Source: a phage. From it: a DNA stretch of 12,385 bases. The notes below the pieces were generated by a model. That model made no database searches. It was not told where the DNA came from and worked only from the letters and a program-made list of their open reading frames with translations. The stretch lies in sequence record PZ049721.1; one strand, written 5' to 3'. Both the position numbers and the translations under genes were made by a program. This document shows, one piece after another, positions 1 to 7,125 of this stretch (position 1 is its first letter; each line of letters opens with the position of its first letter).

Positions 1-431
1 TCACTTTCATTTTTTTTATTTATATTTGATTTCTTTTGACCTTCTTTAAGTTGTTCTAATGCTTCTGCTAATCTGTTTGGTACTGGTAATCCTAAAGCTG
101 TACAGTTTTCTAAGATACTGATACCTTCATTAGCTATATAAAAATAACAAATTAATGTTCTGAAAATCCAAGTACTATCATTTATTAATCTATCTAGTAA
201 TACAGCTACTATTAAAACTATAAGTATTACTGATTTCTTAGCTATCCCCTTAAATCCAGTATTAGAACTAAGCTTATCTGTTACATATCCTCTTAATAAT
301 CCTGTTAAGTAATCTATTAGCATAAATGCAACTAATACGCTTAATGCTATATCCCATCCCCCAAATAACCATGTAAGTAAAGTTCCAACAATTGCTGTTA
401 GTCCGCTTAGTCTTTCATCGTATATATTCAT
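1..431 (-). CDS. Holin, Phage_holin_4_1 (TcdE-like) family; 3'-partial, C-terminus runs off the window start
   Basis: ATG at 431-429 with AGGAGG SD 5 nt upstream (+ strand 437-442). Hand translation: MNIYDERLSGLTAIVGTLLTWLFGGWDIALSVLVAFMLIDYLTGLLRGYVTDKLSSNTGFKGIAKKSVILIVLIVAVLLDRLINDSTWIFRTLICYFYIANEGISILENCTALGLPVPNRLAEALEQLKEGQKKSNINKKNES... Three hydrophobic helices plus the NEGISILEN..LGLPVP..L motif recalled from TcdE/phage holins. Not in ORF track because there is no stop codon inside the window. Confidence 0.8.
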   Translation of the reverse strand, partial: MNIYDERLSGLTAIVGTLLTWLFGGWDIALSVLVAFMLIDYLTGLLRGYVTDKLSSNTGFKGIAKKSVILIVLIVAVLLDRLINDSTWIFRTLICYFYIANEGISILENCTALGLPVPNRLAEALEQLKEGQKKSNINKKNES

Positions 432-451
432 CTATTCCTCCTAAGTTATTA

Positions 452-480
452 TTAAAAAAGAACCTACTTTTGTAGGTCCT
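452..480 (-). terminator. Putative rho-independent terminator between 57-aa ORF and holin
   Basis: On minus strand: GGACCUAC-AAAA-GUAGGUUC (8-bp stem, one G-U pair; + strand 460-479) followed by U6 (+ strand A-tract 454-459). The 57-aa ORF stop codon (464-466) lies inside the stem. Confidence 0.5.
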
Positions 481-637
481 TAACTATTAGATTTTCATAA
501 CCTTTTTCTGTAAGAATTTCATTAACTTCATTTTGATATTTACTCCAATAAGAATCTGGAACAACTACTCTATATGGTAATCCTCCATTTTCCTCACCTT
601 TTATAATTTGGTCTGCTAAATATTTTGCACTGCTCAT
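464..637 (-). CDS. Hypothetical small protein (57 aa), not in supplied ORF track
   Basis: ATG 637-635 preceded by GGAGG SD with 9-nt spacer (minus: taGGAGGaataataatATG). Hand translation: MSSAKYLADQIIKGEENGGLPYRVVVPDSYWSKYQNEVNEILTEKGYENLIVKDLQK, stop TAG 466-464. Same strand and tight spacing as the operon. No recognisable family motif. Confidence 0.5.
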   Translation of the reverse strand: MSSAKYLADQIIKGEENGGLPYRVVVPDSYWSKYQNEVNEILTEKGYENLIVKDLQK

Positions 638-657
638 ATTATTATTCCTCCTATGAT

Positions 658-846
658 TTATATATTTTGTGACATGTTTTGCATTACTAATTCATTTACA
701 ATGTTTTGAGTTGAATCTACTTGCTCTTTTAAATCAGTATTTTCATTTCCTAGTCTTTGCATTTCTATTGCTATTGGTGCAAATACATGAGGGCAATTCT
801 TTGCTAGAAAGTCTATTGCTTCCTCTAAAGTCATAGTATTATTCAT
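658..846 (-). CDS. Hypothetical small acidic protein (62 aa); track ORF 658..879 trimmed to the SD-supported ATG
   Basis: Track ORF begins at GTG 879 directly abutting the upstream stop with no SD. The in-frame ATG at 846-844 has a strong SD (minus: aaaGGAGAtgtttttATG). Product: MNNTMTLEEAIDFLAKNCPHVFAPIAIEMQRLGNENTDLKEQVDSTQNIVNELVMQNMSQNI. No TM segment and no family recognised. Confidence 0.5.
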   Translation of the reverse strand: MNNTMTLEEAIDFLAKNCPHVFAPIAIEMQRLGNENTDLKEQVDSTQNIVNELVMQNMSQNI

Positions 847-879
847 AAAAACATCTCCTTTTTTGTATAAAAATAACAC

Positions 880-3321
880 CTACATTTGAGGTGCTTCTAA
901 TCTATCTAATCTTAATTTTGTATCTAATGTATTAAGTGCTACTGCAAAATTAGCTACATTAGTTTTATATACTTGATCTTGTAACTGTTTAATTTGATCT
1001 TGTATTGATTTTACTAAACTAGGTAAACTAGATGTTATTTTAAAGCTTGCAGGTGGAGCTATTACTCCAGAAAGTATTAACCATAAAGTTTCGTTATCAA
1101 AACTTTCTAATTCTAGTGGATTAACTTCATAAGTCTCACTTAAATTTTTTTCATATAAAAAATTAATATTATTATTAGTTAAATAAGTTTTCAATTGTTC
1201 AACAGTAGTTGCCTTTAATTTAGATAAACTTAAAACAACTCTTTGCATAGTATCATGTATTGCTATTCCCTCAACATCGTTCTTTATTAAATCGGCAATA
1301 CTATAAACTTTTAATTTATCACATAAACACTTTCCATTTTTCTTAAATAAGTTAGAATCTAATATAAATAAAGTTGTTTCTGCTCTTGAGGTACTGATAA
1401 TAAAGTTTTCAATCCCAACTAATGACATAATATCTATATTGCGAGTAAAAATATTATTTTCAATAGTATCGCAACTATTCAAGTCAATTCCTCTTAACTC
1501 TGTAACTGGCTTCCAATTTCCATCTGTATCTCTAAATAAAATTGGTTTTTTATCTTGTCTAAATGGCTTGTTTTTATTTTCGGGTAAACCTAGAAAAACG
1601 TTGCTTGCATCTTTGTAAATCCTAAATTTCACATATTCAGCATTTTTAGGTGGTGCAAATAACTCAACACTCGGTTTATCATAAATAACACTTATAAAGT
1701 TTTTATTTATATCATAAAAACATATCATAGCGTGTTTATCAAAAGATGTACCAGAATTACAATCAAATAATAAACTGTTAGATTTTGATGAATCTATTTT
1801 TATAAAATTAACCGTTCTTTTATAATCTGTTCCTGTTGTTGTATTTCCATTTGTTGAATTTAATCCACCTAATTCAAACACCCCGTCAAATAAATTTGCA
1901 TTATAATCTTTTGATAAAACTTCTATTTCACTTCCATTTCCAACTGATGTGATCCCGTAGAGGTTTAGGTTATTGTTCTGTGTAACATCACCAGTAAATA
2001 GACCAACATTATTAACTTTTATTGAACAAGTACACTTCGAACATGCAATACCTAACTCGATTTTAGCTATTGTCTTACCAACTTGCGATATGATTTTATT
2101 AGTTTTAACATATATCTTACCTGTTTCGTTTAAAACCTGTAAACCTGTTATATAAGCATCGGTACCATCAGTGAATGTTACTTTAGGCTGTGCATAAACT
2201 GTTCCTGTTGAACCCTCTTGTGACACAAACTTAGTTACATCTACATCATAATAAATGGTAAAATTATCTCCATGCACAAAAGATGTTCCAAACTCTCTTA
2301 ATGCAATATATGACCCACTTACCGTTGTATAATCTTCCCTAACCCAAGGAAGTTTAACAGTAGGTGATACTAGATTAATTATACTCTTACCACTTAGTTT
2401 TAAATCCTTCACAACTCCATTTTGAGTGTTTTTGCAAACTAAATAATTCTGTCCATTTGGCAACTCATAAGCAAAGTCTTGGCTTTCTTTCATATTATTC
2501 ATATCAACAACAAAATCTTTTAAAGACTTATCACCTACAATTAAATCAGATTTAAGTCTTTGCTCTAAAGTATCATGAACAACTCCGTTAGCATCTTTTC
2601 TAGCTTCCTTAACTTCTAAATCTTTAGTTCCAGCTGCTATAGCTCTATTAACATCAGTTATCTTTTCATCTGTCTTTGATACCATATTATCTATAGCAGT
2701 GTTAGTTTCAACCTTCATATTAACTATAGAATTACCAACTTGTTTAATCATTTCTGTTTTAGCAGTTTCAACTTCTTCTATCTTAGTATTTGCATTGCTA
2801 GTAGCTATATCTGCTTCATTAGCTGATCTATATGCATTATCAATAGCATCTGTTACATCAGTAATCATTGAATTGGCTTTGTTGAGTGCTAAATTAGCTT
2901 TGCTTGATGCTTCATTTGTACTATTTATAAGTTCTATAAGTATGGGATAATTTGTTTCAGCTTCTACACCATTTCCAGTAGTTAATCCCTGCCATATATC
3001 ATACATAACTGGAGGTGATTGAGCTACTCCACCATCTGCCCTATTAACTAATACTTCAAGTTTGTTAGTTCCAACTACCAATGAATTTGAAGGGAATACT
3101 ATATCTATTATCCCATTTTTAGCATCTACTAACTTACCAAATCCGCTTATTTCAATAGAATCTTTAGTAGTAAATGTGCAAGCAATACTACCCCCGGTAA
3201 AATCATCAGATCCACCAGTAACAAGTTTGCATCTCAAAGTATTATTTGTACTCAAATTACCCTGGTTAAAATAAATTATATCTTTATATAACCAAGGCTT
3301 AGTAAAATCTATTGTAAACAT
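880..3321 (-). CDS. Baseplate upper protein (BppU)-like tail fibre / putative receptor-binding protein, 813 aa
   Basis: ATG 3321 with SD aGGAAGTAGGTG and 5-nt spacer. N-terminal ~115 aa (MFTIDFTKPWLYKDIIYFNQGN...FTGGSI...DAKNGIIDIVFPSN...) fits my recollection of the BppU N-terminal domain. It is followed by an Ala/Asn/Thr-rich heptad-like linker (res ~130-250), a large Ser/Thr/Asn/Gly-rich beta-type region, and a C-terminal helical segment (SLVKSIQDQIKQLQDQV...). Position is directly downstream of Tal. Confidence 0.6.
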   Translation of the reverse strand: MFTIDFTKPWLYKDIIYFNQGNLSTNNTLRCKLVTGGSDDFTGGSIACTFTTKDSIEISGFGKLVDAKNGIIDIVFPSNSLVVGTNKLEVLVNRADGGVAQSPPVMYDIWQGLTTGNGVEAETNYPILIELINSTNEASSKANLALNKANSMITDVTDAIDNAYRSANEADIATSNANTKIEEVETAKTEMIKQVGNSIVNMKVETNTAIDNMVSKTDEKITDVNRAIAAGTKDLEVKEARKDANGVVHDTLEQRLKSDLIVGDKSLKDFVVDMNNMKESQDFAYELPNGQNYLVCKNTQNGVVKDLKLSGKSIINLVSPTVKLPWVREDYTTVSGSYIALREFGTSFVHGDNFTIYYDVDVTKFVSQEGSTGTVYAQPKVTFTDGTDAYITGLQVLNETGKIYVKTNKIISQVGKTIAKIELGIACSKCTCSIKVNNVGLFTGDVTQNNNLNLYGITSVGNGSEIEVLSKDYNANLFDGVFELGGLNSTNGNTTTGTDYKRTVNFIKIDSSKSNSLLFDCNSGTSFDKHAMICFYDINKNFISVIYDKPSVELFAPPKNAEYVKFRIYKDASNVFLGLPENKNKPFRQDKKPILFRDTDGNWKPVTELRGIDLNSCDTIENNIFTRNIDIMSLVGIENFIISTSRAETTLFILDSNLFKKNGKCLCDKLKVYSIADLIKNDVEGIAIHDTMQRVVLSLSKLKATTVEQLKTYLTNNNINFLYEKNLSETYEVNPLELESFDNETLWLILSGVIAPPASFKITSSLPSLVKSIQDQIKQLQDQVYKTNVANFAVALNTLDTKLRLDRLEAPQM

Positions 3322-3336
3322 ATATACACCTACTTC

Positions 3337-3471
3337 CTAATTGTAAGAATTTCCTGTTATCTTTGTATAATCTAGCTCATCGATTTTATTCAACATTACA
3401 AATTCTCTAACATCATCATCGTTATAAAATCCATCTATATAATTATCTTTTATAAAAACAAACCAATCCAT
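3337..3471 (-). CDS. XkdX-like small phage protein (44 aa), not in supplied ORF track
   Basis: ATG 3471-3469 lies 1 nt after the Tal stop (TAG 3475-3473) with SD-like GAAGGTAGGTG upstream. Hand translation: MDWFVFIKDNYIDGFYNDDDVREFVMLNKIDELDYTKITGNSYN, stop TAG 3339-3337 abutting the SD of the next gene. The W...Y..G.Y....V......KI....Y.KITG..Y pattern matches what I recall of the XkdX family (PF09693); assignment is from memory. Confidence 0.5.
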   Translation of the reverse strand: MDWFVFIKDNYIDGFYNDDDVREFVMLNKIDELDYTKITGNSYN

Positions 3472-3472
3472 A

Positions 3473-6400
3473 CTAAACACCTACCTTCGCAACTTCTAAA
3501 GCTAACATAGCTAAATTCTTTTTAGTTTCAATTAATTCTTTATCTTTTATAGCAATCTCTTTAGCCAAATCAGCATTAATTTGTTTTAATTTAATATTTT
3601 CCTCAAAACTATTTATAGTAGCTTCATTTGTATTTACTTTTATTATGTCATTTTCATCTATCATTGCAAAGCTAGTAGCTAATAGTCTATCTTTAAAAGC
3701 ATAATTAGATTGCAATGCTTGGTATACATTTGCATCATATATATTCCTACCTCCAAAATTCCAGTCGGCCTTATTCCAAACAAAGTCTGATGCAGAAATC
3801 CACAATGTTTCAGATACGTTTCCGAAAGAATCAGAAACTCCTATTCTAGTACCTCCTCCTCCATTTGCTGGTTGACCTCCAAGCTCCAAAAGGTTTCCAT
3901 CTCCCTTTACCAAACATCCATTACCTTTTGCAAACTTTATAGCATAAGCATTTTCAACTGACATATTAACCATATCTATTCCGCTTCTACATCTAATACG
4001 CTTAACATCTATATTTCTTTGACACGTTATATCTCCCCAAACTTCTATATCTTGAGTAACATGCAAGTTATTGTCTATATGTAAATTGTTATGAACATAT
4101 AAAGGGTACTTATTTATATGAGTTCCTTTCAATTGGTCGTCATGGTCGTAAAAATTAACCCTCAAGTAAGAAGTTGCATTATTAATATATTCAGTATCAT
4201 CTATAGCATTTGGCTGATGAGATATATCAAAAAATGCACAGTGCTTGGAAGTTGAAATTGCATTACCAAATATTTTAGAATAATCACTATTTCTAGTAGC
4301 TCCTATAAAAGACAGAAAGTTACCATCATCAAAGTTGTAAGTACAAATTTGTGATTTATCTATAGCTAATTTTCTAACTCCAAGAGGTGTTAAAAACTCT
4401 AATGCATCAGCTCCCCATCTGCTTTTATACTCATTGTTATAGGTTTGTTCTATTCCCTTGCCATTGAATTTCATATTAGTAACGTACATTTCATCAGAAG
4501 CAGGAACCCATTTTCCAGCTATGTTAGACTTAAAACACCTTAATTCGTTCACGTAACAATGCGCATACGGATACTTATCACTATCAACCCCATTATAACT
4601 AGCATATATGTAAAACTTCATCCAGTTAGCACCGCTTGGAACATCTACAGTATGATTTACAGCGCCTCTAACAACATCTAATTTAATTACATCTTTTCTT
4701 ATATCTGGATAAACTCCAAAACCTTCATATTTCTTAGAATAAAAGTGTATTTCGCAATACGTTTCCATAGCTCTCTCAAAAGAATAATCAAATGCTAAAG
4801 TATGTTTTTCTCCGCCTACAACTTTAATATTAGATGTTTGAAAACCTCCAGCACTTCCATAGTTAGAAACTGTAAATTGTAGATTAGGTTTTCCTTTAAA
4901 TAAAACTACATTGGGGCTACCAGTGTGCCCACCAGTATACATGTAATCTGTAGAATTAGTGCATTTGGAGTTTAAAATCTCATTAGTTCCTCCAGTTTGA
5001 GAAAAATTCATATTTATAAAATTGTTATTAGCTTCAAATTGAGATTTAGTTATAACATCTTCCTCTTTACCATCAATCATCATTTTAAAAACACTAGGCA
5101 TTAAGGTCATTCTTCCCCAGCTATCGATGTCAAATACACGCTTTCCGTTGCCATCTATAACAGAAGCTCCTTTTAGTTCTACCCAGTTAGCCTTTATAAT
5201 TCCAGCTTCCATGTAATCAGCTGAGAATATATTAGCAACCAAGTTTCCAACTCCTAGAGTAGAGAAATATTCTTCGAAATCATCTGATTTTTTAGTAGTA
5301 ACAGTTACTTGAGTACTAAACTCTGTACGATTTCCATGTGTATTTTTAGCGCAGACTCTAAAATACCAAGTTTCTGCAGGTTTAGCTTGGAATAAATGAG
5401 AACTAGATTGACCACTATGTATTAAATCAAATATATTAGGGGTAAAATCTTTAGTTTTAGAAGCGTATAATTCATAAGTGTAATAAACTTTATCTTCGAA
5501 AGTCCAACTCAAATCAACACTTCCCCAACCCTTTACAGTAGCGGTTAGAATAGGTGTATTAGGTAAGCTATCAGGAAAATCTCCTATATTACCGTCAGCA
5601 CCATCTTTACCAGGTGCCCCATCCTTTCCAGGAGGTCCTTGAGTTCCGCCACCGCCTATAATGTCACCTAAAGTTGTTCTGGGCTCACCAAGTTCCATGC
5701 TTTCGTATCGTTCTTTTACGAAGTCATATTTATACTTAATAACCTTAGCTTTAGTATCTACATTAAATCTTTTATCAATGATTCTAGCCGTAGCACATAA
5801 GCTTATCTTATCATTAGTACCTTCATATCCAACACATTTGGATAAAGGTATAAATTTAATTGTATAATTGCTTTTAGGTATATCTCTTTTGTTAATCTTA
5901 AATTCATCCTCACATAACTTATCAAGTTTCTCAACCGTAGGTATTTCACCATTTTTAAACTTGTCAGAGTAATCACGTCTACCCTCTATATTTATATAAG
6001 GATGTGCAAAATTTTCTATATAAGGGCTATCTATCCAGTTACTTTTAACTATAGTTTCTTTCCCACCCTCGGGAGTATATTTAGCAAAACCACCAACTCT
6101 AGTTTCGAGATCTGTTAAATCTCTTTCAAGTACAAAGTCAGTTAAGTTTTTACCGAACTCAATAGTCACCTCGTTATCATGACCTCTTTTATTAAGCACA
6201 TGAATATTAGTTCCATCCCTTAATATTTCAGCACCATTCCCGTAAGTGTCTATAATACTTCCTTCTTTACCAGCTATAGCATTAAGTATATTAACATTAT
6301 CTATCTTATAATTTTGAGCGTTAATAATGTCAGAATATCCTCGATAATGAGTTGAAAAGTGTGAGTTTCTAAATAAAGTATTTAAAGCATATTCACAACT

Positions 6401-6718
6401 AGCATTTTCTAAGTTTACATTTTCAACGTGATCATTGGCTAAGTCAAAACTTTCATGCCTTGCAAATACTGATATAACATTCTTCATAAGTAGTTTAGTA
6501 TCATATATCCTAAACTTTTGTAAGTTTTGTTCATCGTTCGGCTTAACCTCTATCATATTTTCATTTATTAACAAATCTGATAAAGGGTAATTATTCGGAT
6601 AATCGAAAGAAAGTTCAAATATCCCGTTTCTTTCTTCCTCTACATATCCACTATCTATAATATCAACTAATTCACCAAGCTTTACTTTTCCAGTCTTGTC
6701 ATACAGTATAGGTATCAC
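3473..6718 (-). CDS. Tail tip protein Tal-like (phage minor structural protein / Prophage_tail N-terminal domain), 1081 aa, with collagen-like and FN3-like modules
   Basis: GTG start 6718 overlapping the Dit stop (GTGA) with GGAGGTG SD 5 nt upstream. N-terminus MIPILYDKTGKVKLGEL...EERNGIFELSFDYP is typical of Gram-positive siphophage Tal N-termini. Residues 355-379 GGGGTQGPPGKDGAPGKDGADGNIG are Gly-X-Y repeats; residues ~383-475 show an FN3-type pattern (P..P..L.....S..LSW....Y.Y......T.YFRV.A.N..G). Large beta-rich C-terminal half ending in a short helical/coiled segment. Sits directly after TMP and Dit. Confidence 0.7.
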   Translation of the reverse strand: MIPILYDKTGKVKLGELVDIIDSGYVEEERNGIFELSFDYPNNYPLSDLLINENMIEVKPNDEQNLQKFRIYDTKLLMKNVISVFARHESFDLANDHVENVNLENASCEYALNTLFRNSHFSTHYRGYSDIINAQNYKIDNVNILNAIAGKEGSIIDTYGNGAEILRDGTNIHVLNKRGHDNEVTIEFGKNLTDFVLERDLTDLETRVGGFAKYTPEGGKETIVKSNWIDSPYIENFAHPYINIEGRRDYSDKFKNGEIPTVEKLDKLCEDEFKINKRDIPKSNYTIKFIPLSKCVGYEGTNDKISLCATARIIDKRFNVDTKAKVIKYKYDFVKERYESMELGEPRTTLGDIIGGGGTQGPPGKDGAPGKDGADGNIGDFPDSLPNTPILTATVKGWGSVDLSWTFEDKVYYTYELYASKTKDFTPNIFDLIHSGQSSSHLFQAKPAETWYFRVCAKNTHGNRTEFSTQVTVTTKKSDDFEEYFSTLGVGNLVANIFSADYMEAGIIKANWVELKGASVIDGNGKRVFDIDSWGRMTLMPSVFKMMIDGKEEDVITKSQFEANNNFINMNFSQTGGTNEILNSKCTNSTDYMYTGGHTGSPNVVLFKGKPNLQFTVSNYGSAGGFQTSNIKVVGGEKHTLAFDYSFERAMETYCEIHFYSKKYEGFGVYPDIRKDVIKLDVVRGAVNHTVDVPSGANWMKFYIYASYNGVDSDKYPYAHCYVNELRCFKSNIAGKWVPASDEMYVTNMKFNGKGIEQTYNNEYKSRWGADALEFLTPLGVRKLAIDKSQICTYNFDDGNFLSFIGATRNSDYSKIFGNAISTSKHCAFFDISHQPNAIDDTEYINNATSYLRVNFYDHDDQLKGTHINKYPLYVHNNLHIDNNLHVTQDIEVWGDITCQRNIDVKRIRCRSGIDMVNMSVENAYAIKFAKGNGCLVKGDGNLLELGGQPANGGGGTRIGVSDSFGNVSETLWISASDFVWNKADWNFGGRNIYDANVYQALQSNYAFKDRLLATSFAMIDENDIIKVNTNEATINSFEENIKLKQINADLAKEIAIKDKELIETKKNLAMLALEVAKVGV

Positions 6719-7125
6719 TTAACCACCTCCATACAACTAAACTTAAAGCTTACATCAAATATTCCCTTAAGTCTTTCTTCCATAGCGACTCCACCAACTA
6801 CGATAGCTTCATATTCAGTTTTATCGTTACTAAACTTTAAAGGTTTGTACTTAACTTCACCAACAAGCCAATCATTAAATTTATCACACATCACACTAGG
6901 ATCAACCCCATCACAAATCAGATAACCTTTTACATTTACATCCTTGCTTTTTCTTCTCTTATTATCAACTAATAAATCTCCATCTCTACCCATAACTTCC
7001 ACTAATTCAAAATCATTCTCGAAAGATTTTAAGTTATCAGCTTCAAAAGCAAAATTAAAAAAAGTGCTAGAAGTAGCACCATATATAAAACTATCTAATT
7101 CAGTTATATTTTTATACCATTGCAC
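6715..7125 (-). CDS. Distal tail protein (Dit)-like, short form (136 aa; N-terminal ring domain only)
   Basis: GTG start 7125 with perfect AGGAGGTG SD (7-nt spacer) encoded in the last TMP codons. Motifs ...EVMGRDG... and ...WLVGEVKYKPLKFSNDKTEYEAIVVG... resemble the conserved PGRDG and L.F.D.P..Y.A blocks I recall from Dit N-domains. Lies between TMP and Tal. Far shorter than the usual ~250 aa. Confidence 0.5.
   Translation of the reverse strand: MQWYKNITELDSFIYGATSSTFFNFAFEADNLKSFENDFELVEVMGRDGDLLVDNKRRKSKDVNVKGYLICDGVDPSVMCDKFNDWLVGEVKYKPLKFSNDKTEYEAIVVGGVAMEERLKGIFDVSFKFSCMEVVK

Follow-up and report, generated by a model that had tools for sequence, protein, structure and literature searches.

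The two small genes that lie between the tail fibre gene and the holin gene in the phage sequence PZ049721.1 are best explained as the last two genes of a tail-fibre morphogenesis module, not as cargo. Comparisons with related phage loci indicate that these genes, hereafter called ORF A and ORF B, are probably a divergent version of a two-gene module that is widespread among Firmicutes phages. We describe below the features of the 12,385-nucleotide stretch of DNA that was analyzed (the window) and of the related loci on which this explanation is based.

Gene organization of the window

All long ORFs of the window are located on the minus strand. The DNA comes from a siphovirus-type Paraclostridium prophage, since the protein clusters homologous to ORF A and ORF B that have named sources derive from Paraclostridium bifermentans and P. 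ghonii. The ORF listing includes a tape-measure protein (9740..7128), a 136-aa protein (7125..6715), and a 1081-aa Tal-type protein with a Prophage_tail domain (6718..3473). The C-terminus of this Tal/fibre protein forms a coiled-coil helix (...NLAMLALEVAKVGV) whose final residues before the stop codon are ...LALEVAKVGV. Its stop codon is overlapped by a 47-aa ORF (3480..3337) of the XkdX family (TIGR01669, 38.2 bits versus a cut-off of 28.2, E = 8.6e-10). Tal and the XkdX-family ORF thereby combine a large, helix-ended tail protein with a small helical ORF downstream, and they are the second such case in the window. Locus L014 has a 47-aa ORF in the equivalent place.

The 813-aa tail fibre gene comes next (3321..880; phrog_6782), with its stop codon TAG at 882..880 and a conserved C-terminal module encoded by positions 883..1131. 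Between this gene and the holin gene are a hairpin with a T run (hairpin 1, 875..895), ORF A (846..658), ORF B (637..464), and a second hairpin with a U6 tract that resembles an intrinsic terminator (hairpin 2, 452..481). The holin gene (1..431) continues past the window end. It has an SD at 442..437 and an ATG at 431, its product matches Phage_holin_4_1 (PF05105, E = 1.2e-42), and its matches at the DNA level are holin genes of Clostridium phages. An Rfam search of the whole window returned 0 families.

The first-pass annotation of this region had described a 62-aa acidic ORF and a 57-aa ORF, both with good SD sites, and a hairpin-U6 structure just before the holin SD. All of these are indeed present, and the hairpin is the top-ranked site in our terminator scan (see below). 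The XkdX-family ORF at 3480..3337 and the hairpin at 895..875 were both absent from that annotation. On the opposite strand, antisense to ORF A, there is a 55-aa ORF with a GTG start codon (669..836, plus strand). It lacks homologues and other support, and the AT-rich coding strand most likely gave rise to it incidentally.

ORF A and ORF B are conserved genes

ORF A extends from ATG 846 to the stop codon TAA at 660..658, is preceded by the SD sequence AAGGAG at 860..855, and encodes a protein with a net charge of about -6. We consider ATG 846 to be the likely start codon because the alternative GTG 879, which would yield a 73-aa version of the protein, is located within hairpin 1 and lacks an SD. 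In locus L001, the homologue starts at a Met equivalent to residue 5 of ORF A. ORF B extends from ATG 637 to the stop codon TAG at 466..464, and its SD sequence is AGGAGG at 652..647.

Homologues of ORF A form 35 protein clusters and those of ORF B form 23, and the members of all these clusters are 55-63 aa long. Across 11 related loci, the pN/pS values are 0.27 for ORF A and 0.19 for ORF B, compared to 0.65-2.0 for shifted frames of the same DNA that were used as controls. ORF A and ORF B are genuine conserved genes under purifying selection. AF2 models computed from the family alignments predict that ORF A has a helix (residues 7-17) joined to a second, longer helix (residues 19-61; pLDDT 92) and that ORF B folds as a four-helix mini-bundle (pLDDT 88.7). 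Inspection of these models revealed no membrane segment in either protein.

The two halves of ORF A have distinct characteristics. Its N-terminal half (LEEAIDFLAKNCPHVFAPIA) is almost invariant and lineage-specific, whereas its C-terminal half is an amphipathic helix. In a comparison with P0052, the N-terminal halves are identical at 28/29 positions versus about 10/33 for the C-terminal halves, as in a mosaic. An exhaustive search of 1.84 billion representatives with the ORF A HMM found only 3 clusters below 1e-10. ORF A proteins with the C-terminus ...MSQNI are paired with the long form of ORF B, and those ending in ...GG[MVL] are paired with the short form. The linkage of the two halves of ORF A to their neighbors could result from recombination blocks and physical adjacency instead of from contacts between the proteins. 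In locus L009, a C-to-T change around position 3650 introduces a stop codon three codons early in the ORF A homologue (giving the end ...MQSMS), and therefore the last three residues of ORF A seem dispensable.

ORF B is a distant member of the phrog_8908 family

According to the first-pass annotation, neither protein belongs to a recognizable family. This holds for Pfam, NCBIfam, and PADLOC, which provided no match to ORF A or ORF B, but not for the PHROG families, where ORF B can be assigned to phrog_8908 and the helix of ORF A corresponds to the partner motif of this family. The same annotation had seen no sign of a defence or toxin function, in agreement with PADLOC, where no defence model matched at E values up to 1. 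Searches of 50,697 phage genomes by tblastn with ORF A and ORF B yielded nothing meaningful, and PDB sequence profiles gave nothing below an E value of 0.03.

The PHROG family phrog_8908 comprises phage proteins of about 45-50 aa whose function is uncharacterised. Residues 4-52 of ORF B match profile positions 2-44 of 49 (E = 1.6e-4). Furthermore, in loci L002 and L005 the ORF A homologue is followed by a 48-49-aa protein that matches phrog_8908 at 1e-18, and ORF B aligns with these shorter proteins over its full length, two insertions apart. The pattern M..YLAxQII...Y..V....K.E.D..L.EKG.E.LI is common to ORF B and the family over the whole length, and the alignments of the two (A3 and A4) have 8-12 invariant columns. 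As is true for phrog_8908 genes, ORF B directly precedes the lysis cassette and is located after a gene for a protein with a partner-helix end. Unlike the family, ORF B is longer and carries the insertions GEENGG and PD.YW. These similarities show that ORF B is a distant member of phrog_8908, in the form of a divergent long variant.

A profile made from the ORF B family produced 474 matches in Paraclostridium, Bacillus, Anoxybacillus, and Geobacillus, and every one of these proteins is labeled "hypothetical." The ORF B-like proteins of loci L024 (4233..4523) and L025 (1106..1351) have a C-terminal extension of 35-50 aa with repeated PM[ST]DL[TE]P...KE motifs, which are absent from the 45-aa core family.

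Several other assignments were considered and rejected. ORF B has no match to the XkdX models PF09693 and TIGR01669 at E values up to 1, and hhalign comparisons of the ORF B family with two XkdX proteins gave E values of 0.22 and 0.39. ORF A was not accepted as an XkdW protein (PF09636), given that it has no Pfam match and has only its C-terminal helix in common with W-like ORFs. Likewise, hhalign rejected a relationship between the N-terminal half of ORF A and ORF B-like proteins, between the fibre C-terminus and ORF A, and between the partner-helix profile (see below) and the C-terminus of either the fibre or Tal. 

The CD1375-like family (PF23792) does not match ORF B itself. Its best E value with the ORF B family is 0.011, which is sub-threshold, and 7/42 family members match below the 27-bit gathering score.

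A two-gene module in Firmicutes phages

A scan of IMG/VR with a profile of the short form of ORF B identified 79 loci, and the upstream region was examined for the 65 that are distinct. In 62 of these 65 loci, the ORF just upstream of the ORF B-like gene ends with QxALDDLILGG, which in its more general form is ...[LM]xQxALD[DE]L[IL]LGG[M] directly before the stop codon. The distance between this stop codon and the ATG of the downstream gene is -4 to +3 nt. Such spacing points to a translationally coupled two-gene module, composed of a helix-ended protein and a protein of ~45 aa, that is kept across phages of Bacillaceae and Clostridia.

Residues 30-56 of ORF A match the partner-helix profile with an hhalign probability of 94.8% (E = 5.2e-8). 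Locus L097 from IMG/VR encodes an ORF A-type protein with the canonical end ...ALNELIFNTMNGGL. It is on these matches, together with the placement of ORF B in phrog_8908, that the two genes of the window appear to represent a divergent version of the module. Coupling is looser in the window, where ORF B does not overlap ORF A as phrog_8908 genes overlap their upstream neighbors, but instead is separated from it by a gap of about 20 nt and has its own SD.

The gene pair is linked to the fibre C-terminus

We gathered 16 distinct related loci by exact-protein look-ups and then aligned them, and scans of IMG/VR and GTDB genomes for the fibre C-terminus found only 3 loci. The gene pair is present in 16/16 related loci at identical spacing. 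Specifically, the fibre stop codon is followed by 34 nt, ORF A, 20-21 nt, ORF B, about 32 nt, and the next gene. The surroundings of the pair are far more variable. The fibre body ranges from 700 to 1180 aa, and the tail is mostly of the sipho type (Prophage_tail) but is of the myo type (Baseplate_J, Mu Gp48) in L001, which is a P. ghonii plasmid. Furthermore, three different holin genes are found after the pair (a 95-aa type, a 101-aa type, and Phage_holin_4_1), and homology between loci on this side stops exactly at the holin start codon.

What remains constant alongside the pair is the end of the fibre, namely its C-terminal 65-85 residues (...ITSSLPNFVKELSNQIKQLQEQVYKTNVANFAVALNTLDTKLRLDRLEAPQM), which are kept in 14-16 loci and constitute the C-terminal module (YEVNP...ITSSLP...QIKQLQDQVYKTNVANFAVALNTLDTKLRLDRLEAPQM). 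Because this fibre C-terminus is constant while the fibre body, tail type, and holin type change, the pair belongs genetically with the fibre C-terminus and not with the lysis cassette.

Two loci with distant ORF A relatives, L024 (P0156) and L025 (P0157), provide another connection to the fibre. Their gene order is a BppU_N fibre, a W-like ORF of 102 or 81 aa (81 aa in L025), an ORF A-like gene, an ORF B-like gene, and a gene encoding a membrane protein of 60 aa. In L025, the W-like ORF has a C-terminus (e.g., ...RIEELNKQLAENNMSNLVIGLNLLDLKIKS...) that is homologous to the final helix of the window's fibre (hhalign 92.8%, E = 3.9e-7), and the corresponding region of the L024 protein also matches this fibre helix (hhalign E = 1e-3). 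A protein that is separate and small in these two loci is thus fused onto the fibre in the window, as results from a gene fusion or fission event. By the Rosetta-stone argument, such an event implies that small proteins of this kind interact with the fibre, either as partners or by acting on it.

Some related loci have additional sequences near the pair. In L015-L018, where ORF B ends with EDIK, a 345-nt insert (4169..4512) is located between ORF B and the holin gene. This insert contains a structured A-run/T-run element and may encode a hydrophobic peptide of about 28 aa (MILKFEIEIKNKVFLHFLLSILFWFLYF) that is preceded by an SD. Locus L005 carries a gene for a 157-aa multi-pass membrane protein (6421..6894) between the ORF B-like gene and the holin gene, as well as a SocA_Panacea-domain gene (9279..9761) downstream of the lysin gene. 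Both genes of L005 are candidates for true cargo or for defence genes located at the end of the prophage.

Hairpins flanking the pair and expression of the holin

The gene pair is flanked by two hairpin-T sites. Hairpin 2 (AAGGACCUAC-AAAA-GUAGGUUCUU, 481..458, with the U run extending to about 452-454) has a 10-bp stem that includes 4 G-C pairs, a 4-nt loop, and a U6 run, and its orientation agrees with that of the operon. Its 3' arm includes the ORF B stop codon TAG (466..464), and the structure is located 20 nt ahead of the holin SD. The hairpin is the best of 8 sites found by the terminator scan of the window, compared to 3.8 +/- 2.0 for shuffled sequences. The stem energy is about -12.8 kcal/mol, and the fold of the surrounding 76 nt has a z-score of -1.85. 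Thus, hairpin 2 has the sequence characteristics of an intrinsic terminator, which are a G+C-containing stem-loop and a U tract that follows it directly.

Similar structures recur in other phages. In L001 and L097, a different hairpin (GGGACU-UAAAU-AGUCCU plus U5-6) is present at the equivalent place and holds the ORF B stop codon, and both of its arms have thus changed with pairing kept. Among the IMG/VR loci, 30/67 (i.e., fewer than half) have a hairpin and T tract within -20..+100 nt of the stop codon of the ORF B-like gene, where the background on the same strand is 0.06 per 120 nt. Clear examples are found in D6E, PfNC7401, and Sam46. The hairpin marks a recurrent boundary between structural and lysis modules, so that ORF A and ORF B are the final genes of the structural unit.

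Wherever ORF B ends with VKDLQK, the hairpin-U6-SD block is identical and is located ahead of three different holins. The identical block (429..460) is joined to these three holin types with divergence from the start codon onward, and the holin start codon is therefore a sharply defined module-exchange junction.

Only 32 nt separate the ORF B stop codon from the holin ATG in the window, and a promoter scan revealed no sigma-70-like site in the region of about 640 nt between position 1073 and the holin start. Given this short gap and the lack of a promoter-like site upstream, it seems that the holin must be transcribed by read-through. If so, hairpin 2 would be only a partial terminator or attenuator, or else late transcription would resist termination. 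It is plausible that the hairpin gates holin expression, since there is no room for a promoter after it and boundary hairpins are found in unrelated phages. We propose that the structural transcription unit may be closed by hairpin 2, which would act as an intrinsic terminator or attenuator. With holin transcription dependent on read-through, it would lower the dosage of the lysis genes relative to that of the structural genes.

Hairpin 1 (AGCACCU...AGGUGUU followed by AUUUUUA) holds the fibre stop codon TAG (882..880) in its 3' arm and is weak, with an energy of -7.8 kcal/mol. Its 16-mer TAGGTGTTATTTTTAT is invariant in 16/16 related loci, including the most divergent, and the changes in the 5' arm preserve pairing. 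This element may act in attenuation, in processing or stability, or as a junction for recombination. Further terminator-like hairpins are located on the coding strand of the co-directional late operon at 10407..10430, 12230..12250, and 7063..7080. The presence of such hairpins within the operon suggests graded attenuation or a function as mRNA-stability elements.

Proposed function and alternative explanations

From the linkage of the pair to the fibre C-terminus, the gene fusion or fission event, and analogues in the literature, we lean toward the view that ORF A and ORF B work together in fibre assembly or as fibre accessories. This view agrees with the suggestion in the first-pass annotation that one of the two proteins may be a fibre chaperone. 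In the mechanism that we envision, ORF B would bind the C-terminal helix of ORF A, and the N-terminal half of ORF A would work with the helical C-terminal module of the fibre. The pair would thereby assist in folding, trimerising, or capping the trimeric fibre at its distal end. Its action might be transient, like that of T4 gp57A/gp38 and C. difficile PtsN, or the two proteins might be minor virion-associated components.

A related but somewhat unlikely explanation is that ORF A and ORF B are small structural subunits that are kept at the fibre tip, where they would serve as a helical cap or adaptor that aids receptor binding, rather than transient chaperones. The equivalent proteins gp69 and gp70 of phiCD508 are detected in purified virions by mass spectrometry (PMC11948020), and a related helix module is covalently part of both the fibre and Tal in the window. 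However, ORF A and ORF B greatly exceed the fibre body in conservation, and this would not be expected of parts that contact a receptor.

Regulation of lysis must also be considered because the pair is directly upstream of the holin gene. In Bacillus phage Sam46, the mutations that change turbid plaques to clear plaques occur only in the C-terminal coiled-coil helix of the XkdW-like protein, and the clear-plaque mutants lyse their hosts faster with an unchanged adsorption constant (PMC8190038). By analogy, these mutations may point as much to a lysis function as to a fibre function. Regardless, we consider it unlikely that the pair controls holin timing or has an antiholin-like or checkpoint role. 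The pair is constant while the holin type changes, and the junction is exactly at the holin start codon. Moreover, in the window and in many unrelated phages, a terminator-like hairpin stands between the pair and the lysis genes. The two proteins also lack membrane segments, and in relatives the helix module that precedes them is fused to structural proteins of the fibre.

We also note a more speculative possibility, which we regard as quite doubtful. The various pairs of a helix-ended protein and a small helical protein (fibre C-terminus/ORF A/ORF B, W-like/phrog_8908, and XkdW/XkdX) might form a daisy chain at fibre ends that both assembles fibres and reports their completion to the lysis machinery. 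If true, this arrangement would explain the invariable position of these genes at the tail/lysis boundary as well as the clear-plaque mutations of Sam46 in the partner helix.

The first-pass annotation had also suggested an accessory or moron slot, to be judged by presence or absence of the genes across related prophages. The slot between tail and lysis modules is a known moron site, the pair is bracketed by two hairpin-T sites, and neither protein has a Pfam family. Nevertheless, it is highly improbable that the pair is cargo for lysogenic conversion, defence, or toxicity, because it occurs in every relative (16/16) at fixed spacing, has no sigma-70-like promoter of its own and no PADLOC matches, and is under purifying selection similar to that of the adjoining structural gene (as judged by pN/pS). 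In addition, the pair corresponds to a wider module that is conserved in phages of Bacillaceae and Clostridia, where its translation is coupled to that of the tail gene upstream.

The proper assembly of engineered phages and tailocins with swapped fibres depends on the small genes located after receptor-binding genes. Because the module travels with a constant fibre C-terminus in this lineage, a useful rule for fibre swaps in Paraclostridium, Clostridia, and Bacillus phages would be not to separate ORF A and ORF B from each other or from the C-terminal module of the fibre. Small putative chaperone genes located after RBP genes are of an already known kind. A useful outcome of the analysis is the signature of a large unannotated module without a Pfam family, in which a QxALDDLILGG helix is followed by a coupled gene for a protein of ~45 aa, and also the fixed association of this module with a constant fibre C-terminus in the Paraclostridium lineage.

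Comparison with known systems

The T4 protein gp57A, which acts with gp38, is small, acidic, and all-helical, and it is needed to fold trimeric fibres (cited in PMC9615553). ORF A is of similar size and is predicted to form a coiled coil, and we regard this likeness as a functional analogy only.

Closer parallels in gene order are found in phages of Firmicutes. The PBSX element of B. subtilis has the order xkdV-xkdW-xkdX (PMC6834076). In phiCD27, the corresponding orders are gp26-gp27-gp28 and gp29-gp30-gp31(XkdX), and in Sam46 (locus L105) the order is gp24-gp25(XkdW-like)-gp26("putative chaperone"). As in the window, the XkdW/XkdX genes and gp25/gp26 of Sam46 are part of a series composed of a fibre, a small protein with a coiled-coil end, a very small helical protein, a terminator, and lysis genes (PMC6834076, PMC8190038). 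ORF A differs from the W-like ORFs in being shorter (theirs are 81-171 aa) and in sharing only the C-terminal helix with them.

The PtsN/PtsO proteins (RtbN/RtbO) of C. difficile phages and diffocins are encoded by two short genes directly after the RBP gene ptsM, which is the same arrangement as in the window. Among the systems with this gene order, only these C. difficile versions come with experimental evidence. The addition of ptsN and ptsO increases Avidocin activity (PMC4453579), and PtsHN10N lowers RBP aggregation without co-eluting with the RBP (PMC9615553). The phiCD508 proteins gp69 and gp70 that are found in virions are likewise called putative chaperones (PMC11948020).

Sequence similarity between these proteins and those of the window is limited to short stretches. 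ORF A aligns with phiCD27 gp30 (hhalign E = 9.5e-4) through the C-termini ...QVDSTQNIVNELVMQNMSQNI and ...KVNSTEQTIADLTFQLMSNGVI, respectively, and ORF B aligns with phiCD27 gp28 (hhalign E = 2e-3) through the N-termini KYLADQIIKGEENGGLPY and RILAERILNGGLNP, respectively. Overall, the alignments of PtsN/PtsO with ORF A/ORF B cover 14-25 columns and are weak (E of about 1e-3), and PtsN/PtsO differ from ORF A/ORF B in belonging to other PHROG families (1626/1243/3834). Because the similarity to PtsN/PtsO is this short and weak and ORF B is not an XkdX protein, the relation of the pair to XkdW/XkdX and PtsN/PtsO is probably one of positional and functional likeness and not of family membership. 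Nevertheless, the module described here offers a defined target for working out the function of XkdW/XkdX-type proteins.
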